DNA from: a virus
Lineage: Duplodnaviria; Heunggongvirae; Uroviricota; Caudoviricetes
IMG/VR virus record: IMGVR_UViG_2617270974_000008
Location: 1-47,725 of that record
DNA: 47,725 nt
Reading direction: 5' to 3' (one strand)
Program-made: the position numbers and the translations under genes
In this document: positions 2,815 through 43,715 of the stretch, in pieces
Numbering within the stretch: position 1 is the first letter of the stretch
Layout of the letters: each line of letters opens with the position of its first letter
The notes under the pieces: model-generated
Told to the model about the DNA's origin: nothing
Seen by the model: the letters and a program-made list of their open reading frames with translations, nothing else
Databases searched by the model: none

Positions 2815-5195
2815 TAGATTGACTCCCCCACCTGAGCATCAGTCAATGCCTTGTGCCATATTCTGAAATTCCTGACATGACCAAATAAATGACGTAACCC
2901 GGCTGTAGTCTGGCCTCCAATACGGATCATTGCGGTGTTCTGAATACAGGACCATGTGGTTTTTGTTTCGCTGGATATATGCCCGTTACTTACTGAGCAC
3001 GTAGACTGCTCTGACTTTACACGCATCCCCATAACCATTTTTTCAAGCGATGCGTTTTCGTTTACCCGTCTGTTAGCTCCTCCAATATCGCAATAAGGAA
3101 ATCCGTCGTAATCTGTTGAACGACCGAAGCCAAGAATAATAGCCGCTCCGGTTTGATGACCGCCGGTATCAAAAACACGTGGCGCTGCATTTGGCGTTTT
3201 ATACCAGTTCTTATGTACCTCACAAAGAACCGTAAAAGGAAGATTATAAAGATTATTCTTAATTGGAACTGTAACTATATCGCTTGCGCGGGTCGCCGCC
3301 GTCGCTCCTGATATAATAAAAGATGATACACAAGGCCCATCTTCTACTTGTGGGGTGGCCAGATAAATATAATCACCAGATACGGTTGCCCCGCTCTGCT
3401 TAGGAGAATACTGTATCTGAGAGCCTATTTTTAACTCCCCATCAATTGCCTGAATTGTTGCCTCTGCAAAAATCCATCCGGTAGCTTCGTCCTTTCTGAC
3501 TCTCGCTGTGATCCTTGAGGCAGCACCGCCTGTCATATTAATTTCAAGCGTTTGTGTATCAATATACGCATCACCAAGAAAAGTTGTTGCGCTACCGTCA
3601 TATTTATCAAACCGGATACGCAACCTTACCTGCAGTTCTGTTTTAAAACGACATGAGGTTGTCACGTGTTTATTATCGCCTGAGACATCAACTGACTTTG
3701 TTGCAGCAATTGATGCCATATTAATGGCTGAGGTTTGCCCAATCAGAGAATCGTTGCAGACAAACTTTCCATAGGTAAAACCAAAATTATCCGTCCCTGT
3801 TTCGGGCACATCCATATTTGACGATCGCCCCCAACTGGCAGGGCTTTCCGAATTGAGCATGTAGTTTGTTCTTTGCCCCTCAATAAGCAGGCCATCACGT
3901 TCAAATCGTGGCTCGTCAATGGCAGCCTCTGTCAGCACACCAGATTTGTTAATATAGGTTGCTTTCGATGCACGTTTAAACTTAACAATCTTGTCGCCAG
4001 GCATCGTTATTTCATCGTCACCAATAACAATTTTTTTATATGATGGCGAAAAGCCCGTAATCATATCCAGCGAATCGTTAAATGGTATCCACACATCAGG
4101 CAGCGGCTGTAAGACATATTTATACGGCTCCGCAGCCTGGCTTGCGTACTCTCTGGCTGCATCTTCGCTTGCTTTAGCTGCCGTCTGGCTTGCTGCCGAT
4201 GCTTTCGCTGAGTTCGCAGCCGCTGTTTCGCTCACCTTTGCGTTGGTTTCACTGGTTTTTGCTGCTTTTTGACTGTTAGCTGATGCAGTGGCAGAAGCAG
4301 CCGCCGCGCTTGCAGAACTGGCTGCGGCACTCTCGCTTTGGGCCGCTGCATCCTGACTGCTTTTCGCCGCAGTTTCACTGGCTTTGGCATTCGTTTCGCT
4401 GGTCTTCGCTGCCGTCTGGCTGGACTTTGCGTTAGTTTCACTCGTCTTCGCAGCTTTCTGGCTGTTAGCCGCAGCAGTTGCTGATCCAGCTGCTGAAGTC
4501 GCAGAACCGGCTGCCGCGCTCTCGCTTTGGGCTGCTGCAACCTGGCTGTTTTTTGCCGCAGTTTCACTGGCTTTAGCATTCGTTTCGCTGGTCTTCGCTG
4601 CCGTCTGGCTGGACTTTGTGTTGGTTTCGCTCGTCTTTGCGGCTGTCTCGCTATTTTTCGCGTTGGTTTCTGATTTTTTAGCTGCTGTTGCGGAGTTTGC
4701 CGATGCAGTCTGCGAGGCCGCTGCCGCCTGTGCGCTGTTAGCTGCATTTGTTTCTGAGGTTTTCGCCGCGTTCTTCGATGATGCCGCTGCAGTTTCGGAT
4801 TTCTTTGCCGCCGCTGCGCTCTGAGAGGCGGCTTCAGCGTTGCGTGCCGCTTCTTCCACCATTTCCTCAAAACGACGCAATGCCTCCGGCATGACATCAT
4901 CTTCCGTCATGGCACCGAGAAAATCATTCAGCGTACCTGGTCTGGAACCTTCATAGACGGTAATGATCCCGGCATGTGAAGGCGGAAAACCTTCAACCAG
5001 CAGGATAACGCTATACTGGCCATACTCAACGTCCATGCTGTAACGCCCGGCTTCATCCGGATTTTCAGAGGCCACCGTGTTCACCAGTACAGTGGTGCTG
5101 TTACGCTTTGCCTTCAGTTGAATAGTGCAGTTCTGTATTGGTTTTCCCGCACCATCTTTCAGCACACCTGAGATTTTTACTGCTGCCATATCCAC
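2814..5195 (-). CDS. stf: Side tail fibre protein (lambda Stf-like N-terminus, Ala/Ser/Thr repeat array, LamG-like C-terminus)
   Basis: 793 aa; N-terminal ~110 aa match recalled lambda Stf (AVKISGVLKDG...GRYSMDVEYGQYSV...); C-terminal ...HVRNFRIWHKALTDAQV resembles end of concanavalin-like/LamG jelly-roll domains. Confidence 0.85.
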   Translation of the reverse strand: MDMAAVKISGVLKDGAGKPIQNCTIQLKAKRNSTTVLVNTVASENPDEAGRYSMDVEYGQYSVILLVEGFPPSHAGIITVYEGSRPGTLNDFLGAMTEDDVMPEALRRFEEMVEEAARNAEAASQSAAAAKKSETAAASSKNAAKTSETNAANSAQAAAASQTASANSATAAKKSETNAKNSETAAKTSETNTKSSQTAAKTSETNAKASETAAKNSQVAAAQSESAAAGSATSAAGSATAAANSQKAAKTSETNAKSSQTAAKTSETNAKASETAAKSSQDAAAQSESAAASSASAAAASATASANSQKAAKTSETNAKVSETAAANSAKASAASQTAAKASEDAAREYASQAAEPYKYVLQPLPDVWIPFNDSLDMITGFSPSYKKIVIGDDEITMPGDKIVKFKRASKATYINKSGVLTEAAIDEPRFERDGLLIEGQRTNYMLNSESPASWGRSSNMDVPETGTDNFGFTYGKFVCNDSLIGQTSAINMASIAATKSVDVSGDNKHVTTSCRFKTELQVRLRIRFDKYDGSATTFLGDAYIDTQTLEINMTGGAASRITARVRKDEATGWIFAEATIQAIDGELKIGSQIQYSPKQSGATVSGDYIYLATPQVEDGPCVSSFIISGATAATRASDIVTVPIKNNLYNLPFTVLCEVHKNWYKTPNAAPRVFDTGGHQTGAAIILGFGRSTDYDGFPYCDIGGANRRVNENASLEKMVMGMRVKSEQSTCSVSNGHISSETKTTWSCIQNTAMIRIGGQTTAGLRHLFGHVRNFRIWHKALTDAQVGESI
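4240..4700 (-). repeat. Tandem coding repeat (about 192-bp period, roughly 2.3 copies) inside stf
   Basis: Near-identical DNA blocks (gcattcgtttcgctggtcttcgctgccgtctggctggacttt recurs about 192 bp apart); encodes repeated AAKTSETNAK... segments. Confidence 0.7.
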
Positions 5196-26021: not shown

Positions 26022-26546
26022 TCAATTAATCAGCAGTTCAGGCTGTGTCACCTGCAAGATGTATTCATGCTCGACAGCCAGGACACGCTTCTCTTTCTTC
26101 CGTTCGTTCATTAACCGACTGCCGATCGTACCTTTCAGCTTTGAGCGTGTTTCTTTGGTGGCGTAGCGGTGCTGCATTTCTTCGCCAATTGCCATGCGGC
26201 GGCTCAGTTGCTCTGCCATCCAGTTGAATGCTGCGATATAGCTCTCCTTGATTGCCGCAGCAGCTTTCCCGGTGAACCCCATCACAACCATGATCCAGCC
26301 ATCTTTCGTCAGGCTGTACATCGGGCGAACCTTGCCCTGCTCATCGATATAATCAGCCGACGCAAAATTGCGTTGGCTAAACTCACGCGAGCAATCAGCC
26401 TTAACCTGCTCGATTTTCCTGAGAACATCACCGTGTCGCTTGCCGAAGTACTTGGCAATTTTTCTGGATGTGGTAACGACCTCTCCGTTTTTGGCTTGCA
26501 CCATTTCTCGGAAGTCGAAGGCTGGAATAACTGAATGATTATTCAT
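26022..26546 (-). CDS. Rha-family phage regulatory protein (antirepressor-like)
   Basis: ORF 26022..26789; start at MNNHSVIPAFDF (ATG 26546); motif ...VVTTSRKIAKYFGKRHGDVLRKIE typical of Rha domain. Confidence 0.65.
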   Translation of the reverse strand: MNNHSVIPAFDFREMVQAKNGEVVTTSRKIAKYFGKRHGDVLRKIEQVKADCSREFSQRNFASADYIDEQGKVRPMYSLTKDGWIMVVMGFTGKAAAAIKESYIAAFNWMAEQLSRRMAIGEEMQHRYATKETRSKLKGTIGSRLMNERKKEKRVLAVEHEYILQVTQPELLIN

Positions 26547-29905: not shown

Positions 29906-29940
29906 CAAAATCAATATAAACAGCCCCTCCGGAGAGGGGC
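29906..29940 (-). terminator. Hairpin terminator (GC stem plus T-run on minus strand)
   Basis: gcccctc-cgga-gaggggc stem; minus strand followed by tttatattgatttt. Confidence 0.45.
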
Positions 29941-30333
29941 TGGAGAGTGGCGCTATGTGCCATTGCATGGTGCCGGGTGCCTCCCGGTGAATTCAGTACC
30001 AGCACCTGAATCCGCGATTATCCCATATACCTACTCGCTGATTGCCCCTCCGCACAGGGGGATTCACCATGCCAGTTTCTTTTAACAAACTCCCCGCAAA
30101 CCAGACAACAGTCAACCGCCTGAATTGTGAAGTATTTAAAAATTTCTCCCGCTAACTGATACCCGGCGAACAGTCTGGCGTTTTCTTTTTCAGCAACGGA
30201 AAAGCAACAACCACCACACCTGCCACCAGCACACCGTCAGCCAGCACTGACATTATCCGGCTGCTGCAATGCCATTCACAAAAACAGTAAGCAATCACTT
30301 TTTACCGTAACAGGTGATAATCCAGATATGTAT

Positions 30334-30797: not shown

Positions 30798-30874
30798 TGG
30801 CGCGTTGTACTGGATTCGAACCACTGACCGATTGCTTAGAAGGCAATTGCTCTGTCCTGCTGAGCTAACAACGC
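30798..30874 (-). tRNA. tRNA-Arg (anticodon UCU)
   Basis: 77-nt cloverleaf folded by eye: 7-bp acceptor, anticodon stem ATTGC/GCAAT with loop CTTCTAA, T-loop TTCGAAT, 3' CCA. Confidence 0.85.
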
Positions 30875-30887
30875 AGAATACCGATAA

Positions 30888-30964
30888 TGGACCACCATCG
30901 GGGACCCGAACTCCGCGCAACCAGCTTCGAAAGCTGGCGCTCTTTCCTGATGAGCTAATGGCGG
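30888..30964 (-). tRNA. tRNA-Arg (anticodon UCG as read)
   Basis: 77-nt cloverleaf: anticodon stem CCAGC/GCTGG, loop TTTCGAA, acceptor with one G-U pair, CCA end. Confidence 0.75.
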
Positions 30965-30971
30965 TATGTGA

Positions 30972-31047
30972 TGGTGGCCCTTGCTGGATTTGAACCAGCG
31001 ACCTGGCGATTATGAGTCGCTCGCTCTCACCACTGAGCTAAAGGGCC
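30972..31047 (-). tRNA. tRNA with CAU anticodon (Met or lysidine-type Ile2)
   Basis: 76-nt cloverleaf: acceptor GGCCCTT/AAGGGCC, anticodon loop CTCATAA, T-loop TTCAAAT, CCA end. Confidence 0.85.
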
Positions 31048-33840: not shown

Positions 33841-34938
33841 TTATGGTATTAATCCAGCTGTTCTTGCTTTATTAATATAATTTTTACAGTGGTTAGCCAA
33901 ATACTCTGCAAACTTGCATGGAAGTGCATTTCCTATTATGACGCATACTTTATCCATCAAAGCTGTATCAAACACATAGTTATCAGGAAAAGTCTGTAGT
34001 CTAGCAGCTTCTCGAACAGAAATAGTACGCGTATCCTCAGGATGTCCATATCGCCCACGGCTTAAAGTTGTGCACCCACCTGTAATCGTAGGCGATACGT
34101 CATCCCAAAGCATACGACCATAAACATTACTAAATCCTTTATAGTCGCCTTTATGGCAATCTGGACGGAGTTCTTCGGGAATACACTCCCAAGACATCCC
34201 TGGAACAGCCGCTTGTAACCGCTTTATATTGATCTCAGACAAATCCCTAACAATATGCCAACTCGACAATGGAAACTTCCCTTGCTTCTTAGCCTGTGAA
34301 AGAGTTAAGGGTTTTGGCATATCTCCAATAGCTTCTTTAACAGTTACCCATTTGGGTTTCTCTCTTCCATCCTTAGAGTGTGATCCATCAGGCAATGGGA
34401 TGGCAAATCCTTTTCCTGCCAACAGAACAAGCCTTTTTCTGAACTGTGGTACACCAAAGTCAGCTACTTGCAAAACTCCATAATTAACTATGTAACCAAG
34501 TTTTTTCAATCTCTCAATTACTGGCGAAAGAAGATGATTTCCCCGGGAAGCTAATCCAGGAACATTTTCCATCATGATTGCTGATGGATTGGTTTCTTCA
34601 ACCAACCGTAACATCTCGTTAATCAATAAATTACGAGGGTCCTCCCTTTTATACTTGGCAGTGAGACTAGTAAATCCTTGACATGGCGGGCACGCAGATA
34701 AAAGATCTAAATGTTGCTCAGGGATAAGATTTAGGATATCACTCCCCTTTACAAACCGAATATCTTGAACAAAGAGTTTTGTCTCACGATGATTTGCTTG
34801 GAAAGTAGCGGCGGCATGTGCGTCCAGTTCAACGGCAGCTTTGACATCAAACCCGGCCATTTTTAGTCCCATGGTTAGTCCCCCACCACCGCTAAATAGG
34901 TCAACTGCATTCAAACTGGTCACTGTTTTCTCACTCAT
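33841..34938 (-). CDS. DNA (cytosine-5)-methyltransferase
   Basis: 365 aa; motif I DLFSGGGG, motif IV PPCQGFT, motif VI ENVPGL, motif VIII QFRKRLV, motif X IGNALP; start overlaps upstream gene stop by 8 nt. Confidence 0.9.
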   Translation of the reverse strand: MSEKTVTSLNAVDLFSGGGGLTMGLKMAGFDVKAAVELDAHAAATFQANHRETKLFVQDIRFVKGSDILNLIPEQHLDLLSACPPCQGFTSLTAKYKREDPRNLLINEMLRLVEETNPSAIMMENVPGLASRGNHLLSPVIERLKKLGYIVNYGVLQVADFGVPQFRKRLVLLAGKGFAIPLPDGSHSKDGREKPKWVTVKEAIGDMPKPLTLSQAKKQGKFPLSSWHIVRDLSEINIKRLQAAVPGMSWECIPEELRPDCHKGDYKGFSNVYGRMLWDDVSPTITGGCTTLSRGRYGHPEDTRTISVREAARLQTFPDNYVFDTALMDKVCVIIGNALPCKFAEYLANHCKNYINKARTAGLIP

Positions 34939-37042
34939 TATTTCCCAACTTCAACTGTTCTGCCTCATCCAAGAATTCTTGGTGAGTTTGAGTTGTCCTC
35001 AGCAAGAACCCTGCCCAATCAACGGGTGTTAGGCGTTTTTCTTCGATGTATGCAGTATAAGCTTTACGACGTGCCCCACTCAAGCGCTCCCCATCACTTA
35101 CCAGCGTAACGTGAAAATCAGATGCTATTGATTTAAAATCATTATGTCTCTCATCGTTCAAAAACTCCTCGAATGTTTCGAAGTAATTAATAATACGATC
35201 CATTTCATCATTGGAAATATAATGATGTGGCTTTTTTATTTCAATTATTTGTAATTTTCCATCCTGACTAAACAATACAAAGTCTGGTCTTTTATTTTTT
35301 TTATCAAAATCTATAAGAAATATCTCCTCACCAGTTTTCTTTTTATAAAATTTTTGAAATTCCCTTTTAAGCGTGGACAACGTTTTATTTGCTGTAACTG
35401 GGACCCATTGAGGGTTAACTAGCCACGGAGCGGATGCAATTAGATCTTGTAACTCATCTTCTGCTGTATCCTTTGCGTCTTTTAAAGACTCGAGACGCTC
35501 AATAATCTGAAGACGCTTTTTGACCTTTTGACCAAAACTAACGGTTTCAGCTAGTTGAGCCGTTGCTAAAATATCGTTGAGAACATTGAGCGGTGTATCC
35601 GCTTTACTGGAAGCTTCTATTAACTTCTCATCTAAGGATTGTAATGGTGCTAACATAATACTTAACTGCACTAAATTCTCGAGTGCATCAGGATCATGTA
35701 ATTCATCACCTCGTAAAGATTTACCCAACAACTTGGCTATTTTTTTAGCCTGTGCTCGCATATCCTTTTGACCGGCTCCAGGGTATGCTTGCTCGACCTT
35801 ATCCTCCACTTGCGCTAATTCGAAGAATTGATTCATCATATTATTTCTAAGGGGGTCGCGAGTTATTTTACCCACAAGTAAAATAACTTCTTGCCCCCAA
35901 TTCTGAAATTGCGTTCCTAAATCATCAGACCATAGAATATCCCTTCTATCAGTTTGGATAAGATCTTCTTTTTCGTCTAACCAGTCAGCATGCAACTCAC
36001 CTACCAAATATGAACGTATAGAGTGCTCTCCAGTAAAACCAGCTTTTCTATTAAAAACTGCTGTTTGCGCAGCAAACTTACCTCGGCAATAAATTCTAAC
36101 ACCTGCCATTAACTCGTCCTTATAAGGCTCTTTCGCGTATGCAATCCAACCTAATATCGGGTAAGCTTTCCCTTCATGTTCAAAACCGGCCTTAACAATT
36201 GATGAACGCGTGCCGTCAGGATTAAAAGCCGTATAATCACTTAAATCCGTACAAGAATCTGTCGCAATACTTCCACTCATGGAACGAAATTCAATTTTAG
36301 AGTTAGGCATAACAGGAACAGTAAACTCTCCGACCTCAACTTCATAGTCAGGATTAGACTTTGTTTTCGAAGTATCAATCAGTTTAATATTCCAGTTTTT
36401 ACTCTTCACTCCAAAACGTTGTGAAAGCTGCCGAGATAAATCTTTTATTTCGCTAATTTTTCTATATTCAAAATCACTTAATATTATTTTAGTATAGGTC
36501 CTGTCACTTAGTGTGCCGTCTAAATCCCCAGTTTCCGGTTTATAAGACACTGCAGTATCATCCATTATTTTTTCTTTATCTAGCTGAATATGAGCAACCT
36601 CATACCCTTCCTTTCCATCACGACTGATTTTTTCCCCACCGGCACTTATAATCTCGACCCTTTTACAAACACCAAAAGGTGCTAATTTCCCAACGCCTTT
36701 CCGTCCCATGACTTTGCGGTGAAACACCTTCGAGGTTTCACCTCTTTTTGGATCCTTACGTCTTTCTTTGCCAACAACCAAATAAAAGTTCTGTAGTTCA
36801 TCAGGCGCCATTCCGACGCCATTATCTTCTACTTCTATTGTGACATTTTTTGACCTGACAACACCATCCTGTCTAACAGCCAAGTATTGGCCCATAGGTG
36901 CTTTTATAGTGACATTAGTCGCATCTGCATCGTAACTGTTAGATACTAATTCGGCTATAACAGCATAAGCCCTGTCATATAATTTCACACCTAATTTATC
37001 TACTGTCATCCTTGATATCTGCATTTCATATTGACGCGCCAT
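34931..37042 (-). CDS. GHKL (Bergerat-fold) ATPase fused to C-terminal PD-(D/E)xK-like nuclease motif
   Basis: 703 aa; N-box ELVSNSYDADAT, G1 DNGVGM, G2 GRKGVGKL; C-terminal ...RPDFVLFSQDGKLQIIEIKK (PD...E-x-K); AT-rich codon usage; SD AGGA before ATG. Confidence 0.8.
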   Translation of the reverse strand: MARQYEMQISRMTVDKLGVKLYDRAYAVIAELVSNSYDADATNVTIKAPMGQYLAVRQDGVVRSKNVTIEVEDNGVGMAPDELQNFYLVVGKERRKDPKRGETSKVFHRKVMGRKGVGKLAPFGVCKRVEIISAGGEKISRDGKEGYEVAHIQLDKEKIMDDTAVSYKPETGDLDGTLSDRTYTKIILSDFEYRKISEIKDLSRQLSQRFGVKSKNWNIKLIDTSKTKSNPDYEVEVGEFTVPVMPNSKIEFRSMSGSIATDSCTDLSDYTAFNPDGTRSSIVKAGFEHEGKAYPILGWIAYAKEPYKDELMAGVRIYCRGKFAAQTAVFNRKAGFTGEHSIRSYLVGELHADWLDEKEDLIQTDRRDILWSDDLGTQFQNWGQEVILLVGKITRDPLRNNMMNQFFELAQVEDKVEQAYPGAGQKDMRAQAKKIAKLLGKSLRGDELHDPDALENLVQLSIMLAPLQSLDEKLIEASSKADTPLNVLNDILATAQLAETVSFGQKVKKRLQIIERLESLKDAKDTAEDELQDLIASAPWLVNPQWVPVTANKTLSTLKREFQKFYKKKTGEEIFLIDFDKKNKRPDFVLFSQDGKLQIIEIKKPHHYISNDEMDRIINYFETFEEFLNDERHNDFKSIASDFHVTLVSDGERLSGARRKAYTAYIEEKRLTPVDWAGFLLRTTQTHQEFLDEAEQLKLGNNE

Positions 37043-40574: not shown

Positions 40575-41000
40575 TTAGTGCATCACCACAGCATTCCCTG
40601 CCGGGCCGCCGCGATTCATCTGGTCATACAAAACAACCGCTGACGCAACAAAATCATCGACATCCTTCACCAGCCGATCCCTCCGTTCGACGATCTCACG
40701 GTAATATTCAGAACTGTGGCTGCGCATACGGGCCACCAGCAAAGGCGGCATCGCCTTTTCGATCGCCGGTAACAGAGCCTGCATTTTTTCAACAGCATCA
40801 GGGGTGTCTTTATCCAGCCAACGGAAAATTTTCTGGGTATTACGGGCCAGGGCTTCCGGATGGCTGTCGTCGTACAGTTCAGGGAACGTCATCCCCAGTT
40901 CGAAATAAGTCCGGGCTATTTCAGCTGCAGGAACTTTCTCACCATCAGGGTATGCCCAGGCATTCATCGCCATGCGGATGTGCTCATGTTTGATTTTCAT
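40575..41000 (-). CDS. YdaT-like protein (occupies cII-like position)
   Basis: 141-aa ORF directly downstream of Cro-like gene and upstream of replication genes; Rac YdaT resemblance from memory. Confidence 0.6.
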   Translation of the reverse strand: MKIKHEHIRMAMNAWAYPDGEKVPAAEIARTYFELGMTFPELYDDSHPEALARNTQKIFRWLDKDTPDAVEKMQALLPAIEKAMPPLLVARMRSHSSEYYREIVERRDRLVKDVDDFVASAVVLYDQMNRGGPAGNAVVMH

Positions 41001-41307
41001 GAATCATTTGCCTCTTGATGCTTCGGGTATGATCGTTTTCGTCATTTGGTTGCTTCATCGACATATTCTGCGAATAACATGACGAGCGTCGTAAGTATGT
41101 CCAATCAACATCAGGACGAAGTTCTTCACACAGGACACCACCTTTTGTTGCTCGTTCAATCGCAGGACATCTCTCAGCAGGTAACTGACGTACACCTTTG
41201 ATCCATTGATTTACGCTTGGAGGAGATACACCTAAAAGCCTAGCCATTGCTGATTGCCCACCGACAACAGCACAAGCTCGTTTGAATGAATAGTTATCTT
41301 TTTTCAT
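40984..41307 (-). CDS. Cro-like HTH protein (YdaS-like)
   Basis: ORF 40984..41328; start at MKKDNYSFKRACAVVGGQSAMARLLGVSPPSVNQWIKG (ATG 41307, GGAG SD); resembles Rac YdaS as recalled. Confidence 0.75.
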   Translation of the reverse strand: MKKDNYSFKRACAVVGGQSAMARLLGVSPPSVNQWIKGVRQLPAERCPAIERATKGGVLCEELRPDVDWTYLRRSSCYSQNMSMKQPNDENDHTRSIKRQMIHENQT

Positions 41308-41334
41308 CGAATGAACTCCAAAAAACACGCAACA

Positions 41335-41380
41335 ATATTAGGCTTAGCCTAATGAAATTGTCAATAGGCTATGCCTAATA
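41335..41380. promoter_or_regulatory. Right operator/promoter region: palindromic operators overlapping strong leftward promoter
   Basis: TTAGGC-TTA-GCCTAA (about 41338-41352) and aTAGGC-TAT-GCCTAA (about 41365-41379); minus-strand TTGACA-18-TAATAT overlaps first site. Confidence 0.6.
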
Positions 41381-41431
41381 CATCGAGAGTAGGGATTGCC
41401 TAACGCGATGCGCATAGGAGACTATTAAGCA

Positions 41432-41908
41432 ATGCTTAGTGGTAAAGACTTAGGCCGAGCGATAGAGCAGGCCATTAACAAAAAAATTGCATCAGGAGCC
41501 GTCAAATCAAAGGCGGAAATCGCACGTCATTTCAAAGTCCAACCACCATCAATCCATGACTGGATTAAGAAAGGTTCGATAAGTAAAGACAAACTTCCAG
41601 AACTATGGCGTTTCTTTTCTGATGTGGTTGGTCCAGAGCATTGGGGGCTTAACGAATACCCCATACCAACCCCATCCACTTCAGATACAAAAAGTGAACT
41701 TTTAGACATAAACAGCCTTTATCAAGCCGCCTCTGATGAAAAAAGAGCAATTGTGGCTTTCATCTTATCTGGAAATGCTACGGAGCCTAGTTGGGTTGAT
41801 CATGACGTTCGCGCCTACATTGCCGCAATGGAAATGAAGGTAGCTAACTATCTGAAAAATCAAGAATCAAAACGGAAAAGCCAGAACATCACCAAGACAG
41901 GAACTTAA
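41432..41908 (+). CDS. Prophage repressor (RacR-like; HTH, no S24 peptidase domain)
   Basis: 158 aa; HTH near KAEIARHFKVQPPSIHDWIKKG; divergent from Cro-like gene; no Ala-Gly / Ser...Lys autocleavage motifs seen. Confidence 0.75.
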   Translation: MLSGKDLGRAIEQAINKKIASGAVKSKAEIARHFKVQPPSIHDWIKKGSISKDKLPELWRFFSDVVGPEHWGLNEYPIPTPSTSDTKSELLDINSLYQAASDEKRAIVAFILSGNATEPSWVDHDVRAYIAAMEMKVANYLKNQESKRKSQNITKTGT

Positions 41909-42002
41909 ACTTATATGGTCCGACGGGAAATTCCTAGTTCCCGTTAGTTAACTCCTACTACCTCTCCCACAAACCATCACCTATTAGGTTGCGCCCAAAT
42001 TA

Positions 42003-42045
42003 TTAGGCATAGCCTATTGACAAGTAATTAGGCATTTCCTATAGT
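42003..42045 (+). promoter_or_regulatory. Left operator/promoter region: operator palindromes overlapping rightward TTGACA-17-TATAGT promoter
   Basis: TTAGGC-ATA-GCCTAt (about 42003-42017) and TTAGGC-ATT-tCCTAt (about 42028-42042) overlap -35 at about 42017-42022 and -10 at about 42040-42045. Confidence 0.55.
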
Positions 42046-42226
42046 TTTCCCATACCAACCCATCCCGTCCCACACAATACAGGGCAATACCTCGAGTTAC
42101 CAGGCAGTGGTCAGGGGTTAAGTAGCCAGCCCGAGGCGTAAGAACATGACGGCAGGGTTCAACTTTAATAACTATGCAGCAGGTTTTTGTTCCGCTACCC
42201 CGGCGTTAAGGGGAAATGAGGTCAGC

Positions 42227-42390: not shown

Positions 42391-42711
42391 ATGGAATTTA
42401 AAGATTTACCAGTACCATTCCAGGAAATGGCATCGAATGTGGTTCGCTCTCAACTGGCGACTCTTGACCTGAGTACCGTAGAAAAAGAAACCATCGACAA
42501 TATATCCGGTAACGTACGCCGAGCCTTTATCGGGCTGTACGAAGAGAAGCAGCTCTCTGATAACCAGGATTTACATGAAAAATACTTCCTGGATCTAATG
42601 GACATCATTGATAAGGGGTTTGGCTTGTTAATGAAAAAGAAAGGGATTCGAATAGAACCCCTTGAAAATTACTTTGCAACAAAAAGCATTAATTCTTTTG
42701 ATTCAAAATAA
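42391..42711 (+). CDS. Hypothetical early protein
   Basis: ORF 42379..42711; start at MEFKDLPVPF with GAGG SD; AT-rich. Confidence 0.45.
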   Translation: MEFKDLPVPFQEMASNVVRSQLATLDLSTVEKETIDNISGNVRRAFIGLYEEKQLSDNQDLHEKYFLDLMDIIDKGFGLLMKKKGIRIEPLENYFATKSINSFDSK

Positions 42712-42964
42712 GAGAATTAATTACAGACTTAACATGCTCTTTCTCATGATTGAAGCTCTCATGATTGAAAGTGCCGGGTTGAAGCGAGTCGATATAATCA
42801 ACAAGACTCTGTCGTACGACTTCATTTTTATCCATAACAGATGCAAGAAATGAAATTGCTAAAAGAGTTATATCACTACGCGCCGCAGCATGTTGCAATG
42901 CTTTATCAAAATTATTAATCTGGCGTATCAGGGAGTTAATGATTTCATCATTTTCAGTCGACAT
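42689..42964 (-). CDS. Hypothetical protein, convergent to early-left genes
   Basis: ORF 42689..43177; ATG 42964 (MSTENDEIINSL...) with AGGAGG SD; AT-rich; 3' end overlaps plus-strand gene. Confidence 0.45.
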   Translation of the reverse strand: MSTENDEIINSLIRQINNFDKALQHAAARSDITLLAISFLASVMDKNEVVRQSLVDYIDSLQPGTFNHESFNHEKEHVKSVINSLILNQKN

Positions 42965-43526
42965 TTCACCCTCCTGAGGGTTGGTGATTAAGGAGTTCTC
43001 CACGGGTGAGGTGGAGTGCGTGCGCCGGACACGGGTGAGCATCCGGCACTGACAGTTTACTGAAAGGATATTTCCCTGAAAAGTCAGACCATAACGCGAA
43101 AGCGCACGGCGAGGTAGCTGGTTCATAGATAGCCTGTCGTTAAATTTTCGTCGACCGTGCGCTTCCGGTTGTGGCAATCCGCGAAATGGCGCGGCGGTAA
43201 GTATGGCGGGGTTATTCCTTCCCCCGTTGAGGACACCGGGTTGTCAGGTTGACCATACGCTTAAGTGACAACCCCGCTGCAACGCCCTCTGTTATCAATT
43301 TTCTGGTGACGTTTGGCGGTATCAGTTTTACTCCGTGACTGCTCTGCCGCCCTTTTTAAAGTGAATTTTGTGATGTGGTGAATGCGGCTGAGCGCACACG
43401 GAACAGTTAAAACCAAAAACAGTGTTATGGGTGGATTCTCTGTATCCGGCGTTAATTGTTAACTGGTTAACGTCACCTGGAGGCACCAGGCACCGCATCA
43501 CAAAACTCATTGTTGAGGGCGCGATA

Positions 43527-43715
43527 ATGAAAACGTTATTACCAAACGTTAATACGTCTGAAGGTTGTTTTGAAATTGGTGTCACTATCAGTAATCCTGT
43601 ATTTACTGAAGAGGCCATTAACAAAAGAAAACACGAACGGGAGTTATTAAATAAAGTATGCATTGTTTCAATGCTGGCCCGTTTACGTCTGATGCCAAAA
43701 GGATGTGCACAATGA
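43527..43715 (+). CDS. Small hypothetical early protein
   Basis: ORF 43422..43715; start at MKTLLPNVNTSEG (ATG 43527, GAGGG SD); stop overlaps next ATG. Confidence 0.4.
   Translation: MKTLLPNVNTSEGCFEIGVTISNPVFTEEAINKRKHERELLNKVCIVSMLARLRLMPKGCAQ

Follow-up and report, generated by a model that had tools for sequence, protein, structure and literature searches.

A RacR repressor gene between two mirror-image promoter-operator cassettes: the predicted immunity switch of a full-length Rac-like prophage

The 47,725-nucleotide stretch of viral DNA analysed here (the window) is, as read from its sequence, a full-length Rac-like lambdoid prophage, the predicted immunity switch of which consists of the RacR repressor gene between two mirror-image promoter-operator cassettes. 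The model as a whole, in which RacR acts as a CI analogue and represses PR and PL through two outward cassettes within an exchangeable immunity module, is judged very probable. Its core was anticipated by the initial annotation of this DNA, of which the Rac-type switch, the lack of an S24 domain and the OR/OL-type operator clusters were borne out, while the proposed link to a Rha-family gene was not. The finding is correct but mostly known, the repressor, the binding motif and one cassette having already been published. For K-12, both the two-domain architecture of RacR and the upstream operators, with their consensus and the PydaS promoter, were published in 2022. The inverted downstream cassette, its outward conservation from E. 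coli to Burkholderiales and the half-site co-variation in Hydrogenophaga appear to go beyond the accessible papers. The motif statistics, the architecture and conservation of the cassettes and the absence of S24 are established in the present analysis; that RacR binds the OR sites, that PydaS is a promoter and that both operons can be derepressed is known from experiments of others in K-12 (PMC5700373, PMC9638921, PMC6765115, PMC11014345).

The repressor is identified by the NCBIfam equivalog model NF049929, which it matches over model positions 1-149 of 150 with 246.3 bits (E = 1.2e-73), above the curated whole-protein cutoff of 200 bits. It is 91% identical to K-12 RacR, and the underlying DNA is identical to a region annotated racR in RefSeq. 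The divergent neighbours ydaS and ydaT are present in the same gene order as in K-12, and the operators and promoters described below lie where a Rac-type switch would have them. YdaS is 85% identical to its K-12 counterpart. YdaT, which also matches Pfam YdaT_toxin (3e-10), shares only 31% identity with the YdaT of K-12 Rac. The YdaT-box, read on the opposite strand, is identical to the K-12 YdaT-box ATGATTCATGAAAATCAA that has been footprinted (PMC11879457).

In the AlphaFold model, RacR is all-helical with 0 beta-strands. A lambda-CI-like N-terminal domain (lambda-repressor-like HTH, residues 1-73) is followed by a flexible linker (residues ~74-92) and a three-helix C-terminal module (residues 93-152). 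A C-terminal Peptidase_S24 domain with its Ser/Lys dyad is not found: Pfam gives no PF00717 match in the protein at E-values up to 0.1, and the GDSM...K motifs seen in relatives with S24 have no aligned counterpart in the C-terminal module. The linker, NEYPIPTPSTSDTKSELLDINS, contains neither AG nor CG, that is, no Ala-Gly or Cys-Gly cleavage site; the S24-bearing relatives have WVQAGE-type cleavage sites in theirs. Those relatives, with Peptidase_S24 at Pfam E-values of 1e-14 to 1e-24, match RacR over residues 1-73 only; proteins of Herbaspirillum and Pectobacterium are examples of S24-bearing relatives. A hidden S24 domain is ruled out by Pfam, the all-helical model and the structure comparison together, and the description of the repressor as an HTH protein lacking a LexA/S24-like domain stands. 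Because RacR has neither an S24 domain nor an Ala-Gly site, it would not be inactivated by RecA-stimulated self-cleavage. A RacR profile found no match among PDB sequences and Foldseek no significant match of the model to the PDB, leaving the C-terminal module unmatched; residues Y97, L112, P119, W121 and D125 are conserved within it.

Table 1. Coordinates of the genes, operators and promoters discussed in the text (positions in the window)
Feature	Position	Strand	Basis or remark
racR, 158-aa CI-like prophage repressor	41432..41908	+	ORF, NCBIfam, Pfam, model
ydaS, Cro-like HTH regulator, 107 aa	40984-41307	-	Pfam YdaS_toxin 4e-30, P22_Cro 1e-8
ydaT, CII-like regulator, CP-933P type	40575-41000	-	PDB 8bt1 3e-89; phrog_163 CII-like activator 2e-47
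YdaT-box, TTGATTTTCATGAATCAT	40990..41007		spans ydaT start codon
PR-type promoter (PydaS)	41335..41364	-	TTGACA 41364..41359, 18-nt spacer, TAATAT 41340..41335 (10/12 matches)
O1, perfect palindrome ATTAGGCT-T-AGCCTAAT	41337..41353		motif scan (match at 41338, 0 mismatches); inside PR spacer, overlapping PR -10 hexamer
O2, ATAGGCTATGCCTAA, 1 mismatch	41364..41378		motif scan; one-base overlap with PR -35 hexamer
O3, GTAGGGATTGCCTAA, 2 mismatches	41389..41403		motif scan; racR promoter region
O4, TTAAGCAATGCTTAG, 3 mismatches	41425..41439		read from sequence; racR ATG within 3-nt spacer
Candidate weak third left-side site, TTAGGTTGCGCCCAA, 2 mismatches	41984..41998		motif scan
OL2, TTAGGCATAGCCTAT, 1 mismatch	42003..42017		final T = first base of PL -35 hexamer
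OL1, TTAGGCATTTCCTAT, 2 mismatches	42028..42042		inside PL spacer; last 3 nt in -10 hexamer
PL-type promoter	42017..42045	+	TTGACA 42017-42022, 17-nt spacer, TATAGT 42040-42045 (11/12 matches)
Rha-family gene, ~174 aa from ATG at 26546	26022-26546/26789	-	Pfam Phage_pRha 4e-28; TIGR02681 114 bits

The near-perfect 15-bp palindromes claimed on both sides of the repressor gene were recovered by a motif scan. With up to two mismatches allowed, TTAGGCNNNGCCTAA occurs seven times in the 47.7-kb window against 1.42 occurrences expected, a count reached by 0 of 100 shuffled sequences. Six of the seven TTAGGC-N3-GCCTAA matches form two triplets on either side of racR, with 0, 1 and 2 mismatches upstream and 2, 1 and 2 downstream. 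The upstream sites follow the K-12 consensus (T/A)TAGGC-n3-GCCTA(T/A) (PMC9638921), lie in the racR-ydaS intergenic region and overlap PydaS. The K-12 equivalent of O1 is the first site protected in the DNase I footprint, and the K-12 racR promoters have been mapped in the O3 region (PMC9638921). K-12 RacR has been studied on the same palindromes and promoter by EMSA, ChIP-qPCR, DNase I footprinting and promoter-reporter fusions, so that RacR binding and ydaS-ydaT repression are known from the K-12 protein, which is 91% identical to the window allele (PMC5700373, PMC9638921). Several checks that the initial annotation still called for, by EMSA, footprinting and reporter fusions, had already been carried out in K-12. 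O4 is probably the autorepression site of racR. It occurs as TTAGGC-AAT-GCTTA(A/G) at position -7 in 24 of 28 related loci, and in a weaker form, TTAAGC...GCTTAG, in all five Escherichia-type loci, the window included; an operator overlapping the racR ATG has also been described in K-12 (PMC9638921).

Both promoters that had been proposed to overlap these palindromes, TTGACA-18-TAATAT upstream and TTGACA-17-TATAGT downstream, are present (Table 1). It should be mentioned that the region holds two promoter-like matches where 2.1 are expected, a count that is not by itself above chance. The significance of PR and PL comes instead from their fixed place inside an operator cassette conserved across loci and from promoter mapping in K-12 (PMC9638921, PMC11879457), where a PydaS with identical hexamers and spacing has been validated by experiment (PMC9638921, PMC11879457). 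On the gene map, PR reads into ydaS, ydaT, the replication genes and onward, and PL into the DUF1391 gene, the phrog_6937 gene, DicF, dicB and the exonuclease, xis and int genes.

The downstream cluster is the upstream promoter-operator cassette, inverted. The cassette consensus is ATTAGGC-N3-GCCTAT·TGACA-N5/6-TTAGGC-N3-GCC·TAATAT. Across loci, all 15 upstream cassettes found lie on the minus strand, and all nine downstream cassettes found lie on the plus strand, 71-1,930 bp beyond the stop codon; the operator starts within the cassettes are exactly 25 bp apart. Across 7-9 aligned loci, drawn from E. coli, Mixta, Proteus, Achromobacter, Burkholderia, Pigmentiphaga and Herbaspirillum, the half-sites are invariant and the 3-nt spacers vary freely. 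The outward-facing downstream cassette is kept from E. coli to Burkholderiales. In Hydrogenophaga, a variant half-site, TAAGGC...GCCTTA, is found both upstream and 1.6 kb downstream, in the same cassette. The candidate third left-side site at 41984 departs from this pattern, its spacing being 19 bp and not 25 bp; it is present in K-12 and E. ruysiae and absent from the loci outside Escherichia among the aligned downstream cassettes.

In lambdoid immunity regions, the repressor gene has on each side an operator cluster overlapping an early promoter that faces outward, and this is the arrangement found here; with the cassette conserved across loci, the suggested OR/OL-type layout appears sound. 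Occupancy of OL by RacR is inferred from site conservation, half-site co-variation and derepression of the K-12 left operon. The K-12 genes homologous to the PL operon are derepressed 40- to 70-fold on RacR silencing (PMC6765115, PMC11014345), and a rise of early-left genes by 40- to 70-fold or more is reported on RacR depletion (PMC6765115, PMC11014345, bioRxiv 10.64898/2026.09.06.749655). A left operator would account for the derepression that has been published for kilR, recET, xis and int. No RacR site at the ydaG or left promoter was found in papers naming both or in a binding compendium, although an earlier description is possible. As far as the accessible literature shows, the left operator of Rac seems not to have been mapped, and a test of it would be easy. 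The PL leader showed no sign of a put/nut-like RNA: its fold z-score is +1.19, and Rfam gives no match at E-values up to 1.

We propose that RacR is functionally analogous to lambda CI and, most likely as a dimer, binds the 15-bp inverted repeats TTAGGC-N3-GCCTAA. In each cassette, the -35 hexamer would take its first base from one operator, and the second operator would fill the spacer and end within the -10 hexamer, the two cassettes flanking racR and pointing outward. Since the operators are built into both outward promoters, bound RacR would occlude RNA polymerase at PR and PL. RacR would thereby control ydaS, ydaT, the replication genes and Q from PR, and the DUF1391 gene, DicF, DicB, exonuclease, xis and int from PL. 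The weaker O3, in the promoter region, and O4, at the start codon, would serve autoregulation of racR. YdaS would be the Cro analogue, and YdaT a CII analogue acting at the YdaT-box on its own start codon. The exchangeable immunity module would comprise approximately positions 41007-42052, sequence matches placing one mosaic joint at the YdaT-box and the other directly after the PL -10 hexamer.

How RacR is inactivated is a separate question. That induction needs an antirepressor, as the initial annotation had it, is a reasonable hypothesis, already published for RacR by Lemire et al. 2011 (PMC3121763). The Rha-family gene named as its source does lie in the late region, after the lysis genes. 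No other gene of this kind exists in the prophage, and the matches of the pRha domain include PHROG families labelled anti-repressor. However, an intrinsic terminator (26714-26695) lies upstream of this late-operon gene and the coding strand has no consensus promoter, which would delay Rha synthesis until the switch had already flipped. Phage_pRha is its only domain; the ANT/KilAC or AntA domain and the early or independent expression of P22 Ant-type antirepressors were not found. Rha-like genes 73-99% identical to it occur in phi80, HK639, 2B8 and phiv205-1, in which RacR has no match, tying Rha to the late module and not to the RacR immunity type, and in K-12 the RacR switch works in a Rac prophage that has no Rha-bearing late region. 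We therefore consider the gene no part of the switch and a poor inducer candidate, and its action as an antirepressor that inactivates RacR is very improbable.

A second possibility concerns induction only: a small, LexA-controlled antirepressor of the Gifsy kind, encoded outside the window in another prophage or elsewhere in the host, could strip RacR from OR and OL. RacR is small and lacks S24. In the study of Lemire et al. 2011, RacR and DicA are placed in the group of small repressors that antirepressors might control, and antirepressors of this kind proved able to act in trans from one prophage on another (PMC3121763). Against this, the 47.7-kb window holds no LexA box above chance: the best 20-mer scores 10.7 bits against a shuffle mean best of 11.9 and at least 13.1 bits for known boxes, on a PWM trained on a set of known boxes that could miss a divergent one. 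A CTGT-N8-ACAG scan of the window likewise gave nothing above chance, so a LexA-controlled antirepressor in cis is not visible. The accessory ORFs, screened against PHROGs, include no antirepressor-like ORF apart from Rha, and PaaR2 of CP-933P, a related short repressor, is reported to be unresponsive to mitomycin C (PMC8630535). An outside antirepressor is accordingly considered unlikely.

Alternatively, there may be no dedicated inducer. A bistable circuit, by now mainly a domesticated host module, would flip on loss of RacR by dilution, proteolysis or transcriptional silencing, or on stress inputs at promoters and terminators, such as OxyR acting at ydaT or OxyS, NusG and Rho acting in the left operon. 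Neither a LexA box nor a convincing antirepressor was found in the window. Absence of the repressor alone suffices for zygotic induction of Rac, according to a passage of the Jobling letter that cites Low 1973 (PMC5917428), and CP-933P shows stochastic bistability (PMC8630535). In K-12, YdaT is blocked by OxyR and kilR is controlled by OxyS, Rho and NusG (PMC11879457, PMC12482147). However, the prophage is apparently full-length, and a functional temperate phage is expected to have an induction route; moreover, the conserved P119, W121 and D125 of the C-terminal module suggest a specific interaction surface. Induction without a dedicated inducer is a real possibility that we nevertheless hold to be short of probable.

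A non-SOS trigger might best be sought at the C-terminal module itself. Outside Enterobacterales, relatives retain the DNA-binding domain and the operators but carry S24, which would mean that a RacR-type module was put in place of S24; this direction of the swap is inferred from sequence comparison. It is conceivable, if rather doubtful, that module 93-152, having replaced an ancestral S24 with DNA-binding domain and operators unchanged, is the receiver for an SOS-independent inducer, either a protein or a small molecule. If so, the trigger of RacR could be looked for in the full-length prophage of the window, which would lend itself to this as the K-12 remnant does not. With one DNA-binding domain and cassette kept from Enterobacterales to Burkholderiales and the C-terminal module swapped between S24 and a RacR-type tail, the exchange would amount to a natural experiment of modest wider interest, in which the induction input of a phage switch changes and its DNA specificity does not.

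The ORF map of the window, with head, tail, lysis, Q, replication and int/xis genes, is the basis for calling the prophage full-length. E. coli EC21Z-078 is 100% identical to it over 40575-42150. Collinearity of the whole window with that genome, where a degraded prophage is annotated beside trp, was considered and, together with that annotation, rejected on a 1,516-bp tRNA coordinate offset. No complete E. coli genome covers at least 80% of 22800-47725. Among isolated phages there are only two full-length RacR matches; the E. coli one, vB_EcoS-683R6, is a record of Rac plus flanking chromosomal genes and thus no proof of a viable phage with RacR immunity. The practical value of the analysis is in annotation. 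It sets the exact limits of the immunity module in a full-length Rac-like prophage and names the regulon that RacR probably controls there, which would include the division inhibitors DicF and DicB.

We have compared the switch with four known systems. Unlike lambda CI, the window RacR lacks an S24 C-terminal domain and, by prediction, RecA-mediated cleavage. The window operators are 15 bp and not 17 bp long, one spans the repressor start codon, and the two clusters are ~0.65 kb apart as against 2.3 kb in lambda; K-12 YdaS, moreover, reportedly does not repress racR (PMC9638921). The Gifsy repressors GfoR and GtgR are likewise small, CI-like and without a cleavage domain, a group in which RacR has been explicitly placed (PMC3121763), but neither a LexA box nor a LexA-controlled small antirepressor gene was detected in the window prophage. 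The PaaR2-YdaS-YdaT switch of CP-933P (E. coli O157:H7) shares a short repressor without an autocleavage motif, the promoters PR, PRM and PL, repeats on both sides of the repressor gene and the same YdaT (PMC8630535). It differs in repressor and operators, which are 18-bp palindromes of consensus GTTTAGTAA, and in a paaA2-parE2 toxin-antitoxin pair downstream of the repressor that has no counterpart in the window. K-12 Rac differs in being a 23-kb remnant, in its YdaT, that of the window being of CP-933P type, in its racR -10 hexamers and in having kilR in the left operon where the window has DicF and DicB. It is otherwise alike in gene order and orientation, in RacR and YdaS, in operator consensus, PydaS and YdaT-box, and in the layout of three sites on either side of racR.

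The switch is of the Rac type, with OR- and OL-like operators and a repressor incapable of autocleavage. The 158-aa protein passes the NCBI curated RacR equivalog model (246 bits against a cutoff of 200) and has 91% identity to K-12 RacR, in agreement with the Rac-type assignment of the initial annotation. E. coli EC21Z-078 has a locus matching the 1.6-kb switch region at 100% identity, with the RefSeq labels racR, YdaT-family gene and HTH gene; the identity of the region to K-12 Rac is about 87%. The YdaS protein has 85% identity to its K-12 counterpart. The identity between the window YdaT and that of Rac is only 31%, and the window protein is essentially the crystallised YdaT of CP-933P (PDB 8bt1, 3e-89). 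Since YdaT is of the CP-933P type while racR and ydaS are of the Rac type, the switch is a mosaic. It is noted that the YdaT-box ATGATTCATGAAAATCAA, footprinted in K-12 (PMC11879457), is identical to the K-12 Rac box even though the ydaT gene is of the CP-933P type.

Coordinates of the switch, left-operon and accessory features in the window
Feature	Position (strand)	Details
STnc100 sRNA / tRNA stretches	29912-30101 (-); 30801-31047 (-)	
Methyltransferase and HATPase_c_3 genes	33841-37042 (-)	nin region
YdaT-family gene	40575-41000 (-)	141 aa
Cro-like gene (ydaS)	40984-41307 (-)	107 aa; Pfam YdaS_toxin 4e-30, P22_Cro 1e-8
YdaT-box	40990-41007	across ydaT start codon
Promoter PR	41364..41335 (-)	promoter scan
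Upstream operator triplet	41338, 41364, 41389	TTAGGCNNNGCCTAA scan
Fourth upstream site	41425-41439	TTAAGCAATGCTTAG; racR start codon within its spacer
racR	41432-41908 (+)	158 aa; divergent from YdaT-family and Cro-like genes
Downstream operator triplet	41984, 42003, 42028	TTAGGCNNNGCCTAA scan
Promoter PL	42017-42045 (+)	promoter scan
162-aa ORF	42689-43177 (-)	antisense inside left operon
DicF sRNA	43301-43352 (+)	Rfam RF00039, 76.7 bits; left operon
dicB	43527-43715 (+)	left operon

Scanning the 47.7-kb window for TTAGGCNNNGCCTAA with up to 2 mismatches returned 7 matches against 1.42 expected, a count reached in none of 100 shuffles. Six of the seven are grouped as two triplets on either side of racR, as proposed for the palindrome clusters, and the promoter scan returned exactly the two promoters that had been claimed, TTGACA-18-TAATAT at PR and TTGACA-17-TATAGT at PL. 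The -10 hexamers mapped for the racR promoters of K-12 are altered here (window 41380-41431 compared with 3415-3466 of the K-12 locus, L001): the -10 hexamer AGTAAG is replaced by non-matching TCGAGA/CGAGAG, and the -10 hexamer GAGAAT reads GAGACT, its end lying about 11 nt before the ATG. Such a position would make the racR mRNA near-leaderless, like lambda PRM-cI.

An S24 peptidase domain hidden in the repressor, which the initial annotation had named as the observation that would contradict it, was looked for and not found. No Peptidase_S24 match is present in RacR by Pfam at E-values up to 0.1, and the linker carries neither an Ala-Gly nor a Cys-Gly site. The AlphaFold2 model (37 homologues, mean pLDDT 81) is all helical: residues 1-73 form an N-terminal domain, residues from about 74 to 92 a linker modelled with low confidence, and residues 93-152 three helices. 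The homologue search revealed relatives whose first ~73 residues are nearly identical to those of RacR (44 invariant columns in 10 sequences) but whose C-terminal portions are true S24 peptidases bearing GDSM…K motifs, detected by Pfam at 1e-14 to 1e-24 in seven of the ten relatives tested. S24 is thus not hidden in RacR, and from these relatives we infer that the RacR-type C-terminal module took its place. Betaproteobacteria and other groups commonly have the DNA-binding domain of RacR together with its operators, the domain being fused there to S24 peptidase domains (loci L013, L015, L016, L018, L021-L028 and L030; proteins P0101, P0102 and P0114). Some of these fused relatives are 300-366 aa long, with an additional middle segment. 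Further relatives (L014, L017, L020) have unrelated short tails.

When the left cluster was aligned with seven further loci and with the right cluster in reverse complement, one composite unit proved common to all, ATTAGGC-N3-GCCTAT|TGACA-N5/6-TTAGGC-N3-GCC|TAATAT, in which the T that opens the -35 hexamer comes from one operator while the other operator occupies the spacer and terminates within the -10 hexamer. Judged from this alignment, the two clusters flanking racR are one cassette used twice. Half-sites are invariant among the aligned loci, and the 3-nt spacers are free to vary. Across 28 loci from the species collection, the operator motif tracks the DNA-binding domain in Escherichia, Mixta, Morganella, Proteus and Erwinia, as well as in Achromobacter, Burkholderia, Pigmentiphaga, Herbaspirillum and Hydrogenophaga. 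By the strict cassette pattern, all 15 upstream copies lie on the minus strand and all nine downstream copies on the plus strand, with no copy in the wrong orientation among the related loci; the distance of the downstream copies from the stop codon ranges from 71 to 1,930 bp, and their two operator starts are exactly 25 bp apart. In Hydrogenophaga, where the repressor is of the S24 type, the outer half-site base is altered to give TAAGGC…GCCTTA upstream and again 1.6 kb downstream, within the same cassette; the chance expectation for the exact 8-nt core is only about 0.08 per locus. E. coli prophages with different repressors have ydaT and the PL leader from 42053 onward in common with the window, but not 41007-42052 (nucleotide matches H8-H25), and therefore the left operator is inherited with racR in the immunity module. 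The flanks on both sides of this module are common to the window and to prophages with LexA-family or other repressors, and its mosaic joints fall at the YdaT-box/ydaT start and directly after the PL -10 hexamer.

The Rha-family gene proposed as a possible antirepressor is real (Pfam 4e-28; TIGR02681, 114 bits), but its link to the switch is not supported. The gene comes after the lysis genes and is preceded by an intrinsic terminator, no consensus promoter was found on its own strand, and the protein has no ANT or KilAC domain. Near-identical Rha genes are present in phi80, HK639, 2B8 and phiv205-1, records without any RacR match. Rha is thus a poor candidate for the inducer of the RacR switch. 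No other antirepressor-like ORF was found among the accessory ORFs screened, and no LexA box scored above chance in the window by position weight matrix (window best 10.7 bits; known boxes at least 13.1; mean best of shuffles 11.9). The remaining options for the trigger are a trans-acting antirepressor, a ligand or partner of the RacR C-terminal module, and, in a bistable circuit, loss of the repressor by itself.

By ORF map, Pfam and PHROG scans, the window carries an apparently full-length lambdoid prophage with tail, head, terminase, Rha and lysis genes, tRNAs, a Q-like gene, the nin region, DnaC-like and O-like replication genes, the immunity region and the left operon. In this operon, a DUF1391 gene is followed by DicF and dicB, and these by an exonuclease gene, xis and int. 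In K-12, the division inhibitors dicB and DicF are Qin genes under DicA/DicC control, and Rac has kilR instead; with DicF and dicB in a RacR-controlled left operon, RacR would repress dicBF in this strain. Collinearity of the whole window with EC21Z-078 was rejected, since a 1,516-bp offset of the tRNA positions shows that it is lost left of about 39.6 kb, and no complete E. coli genome covers at least 80% of the prophage.

Several further features were observed. In the nin region, a C5 cytosine methyltransferase gene (Pfam 6e-58) adjoins that of a 703-aa HATPase_c_3 protein with matches to type II restriction enzyme models of PADLOC (7e-34); the pair is probably a prophage-borne type II restriction-modification system. 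The 162-aa ORF, in the place of sieB in K-12 Rac, has no match in Pfam, PHROG, NCBIfam or PADLOC and could be an uncharacterised exclusion or defence gene. The interval from the Q-like gene to the lysis cassette contains three tRNA genes and an STnc100 sRNA scoring 132 bits. No PHROG family corresponds to RacR; of 50,697 deposited phage genomes only 2 have a full-length copy, although E. coli chromosomes with RacR number in the thousands. The E. coli 'phage' record with RacR, ON470595, also contains genes of the chromosome, among them ttcA and dbpA.

For the most part, the switch corresponds to one previously described in E. coli K-12. Binding of RacR to the racR-ydaS intergenic region was demonstrated by EMSA and ChIP-qPCR (Krishnamurthi et al. 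2017, PMC5700373). The region was footprinted with RacR, giving the consensus (T/A)TAGGC-n3-GCCTA(T/A), operators O1-O3 were named, and PydaS (TTGACA/18/TAATAT) and the racR promoters were mapped (Wisniewska et al. 2022, PMC9638921). That paper also described the two-domain structure of K-12 RacR and the confinement of its C-terminal module to some Enterobacteriaceae, and S24 is not discussed in it. YdaT and its box have been characterised (Wons et al. 2025, PMC11879457), YdaS and YdaT have been identified as Cro and CII analogues (Casjens and Jobling, PMC5917428), and RacR has been placed among small repressors likely controlled by antirepressors (Lemire et al. 2011, PMC3121763). Upon RacR silencing, ydaG, ydaF, kilR, racC, recET, xis and int rise 40- to >100-fold by RNA-seq (PMC6765115, PMC11014345, bioRxiv 10.64898/2026.09.06.749655). 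The present analysis adds incrementally to this system the exchange of S24 and RacR-type C-terminal modules on a constant DNA-binding domain, a deeply conserved left operator/promoter cassette that co-varies with the right-hand one, and the presence of the switch in a prophage that appears complete and has DicF and DicB in its left operon.
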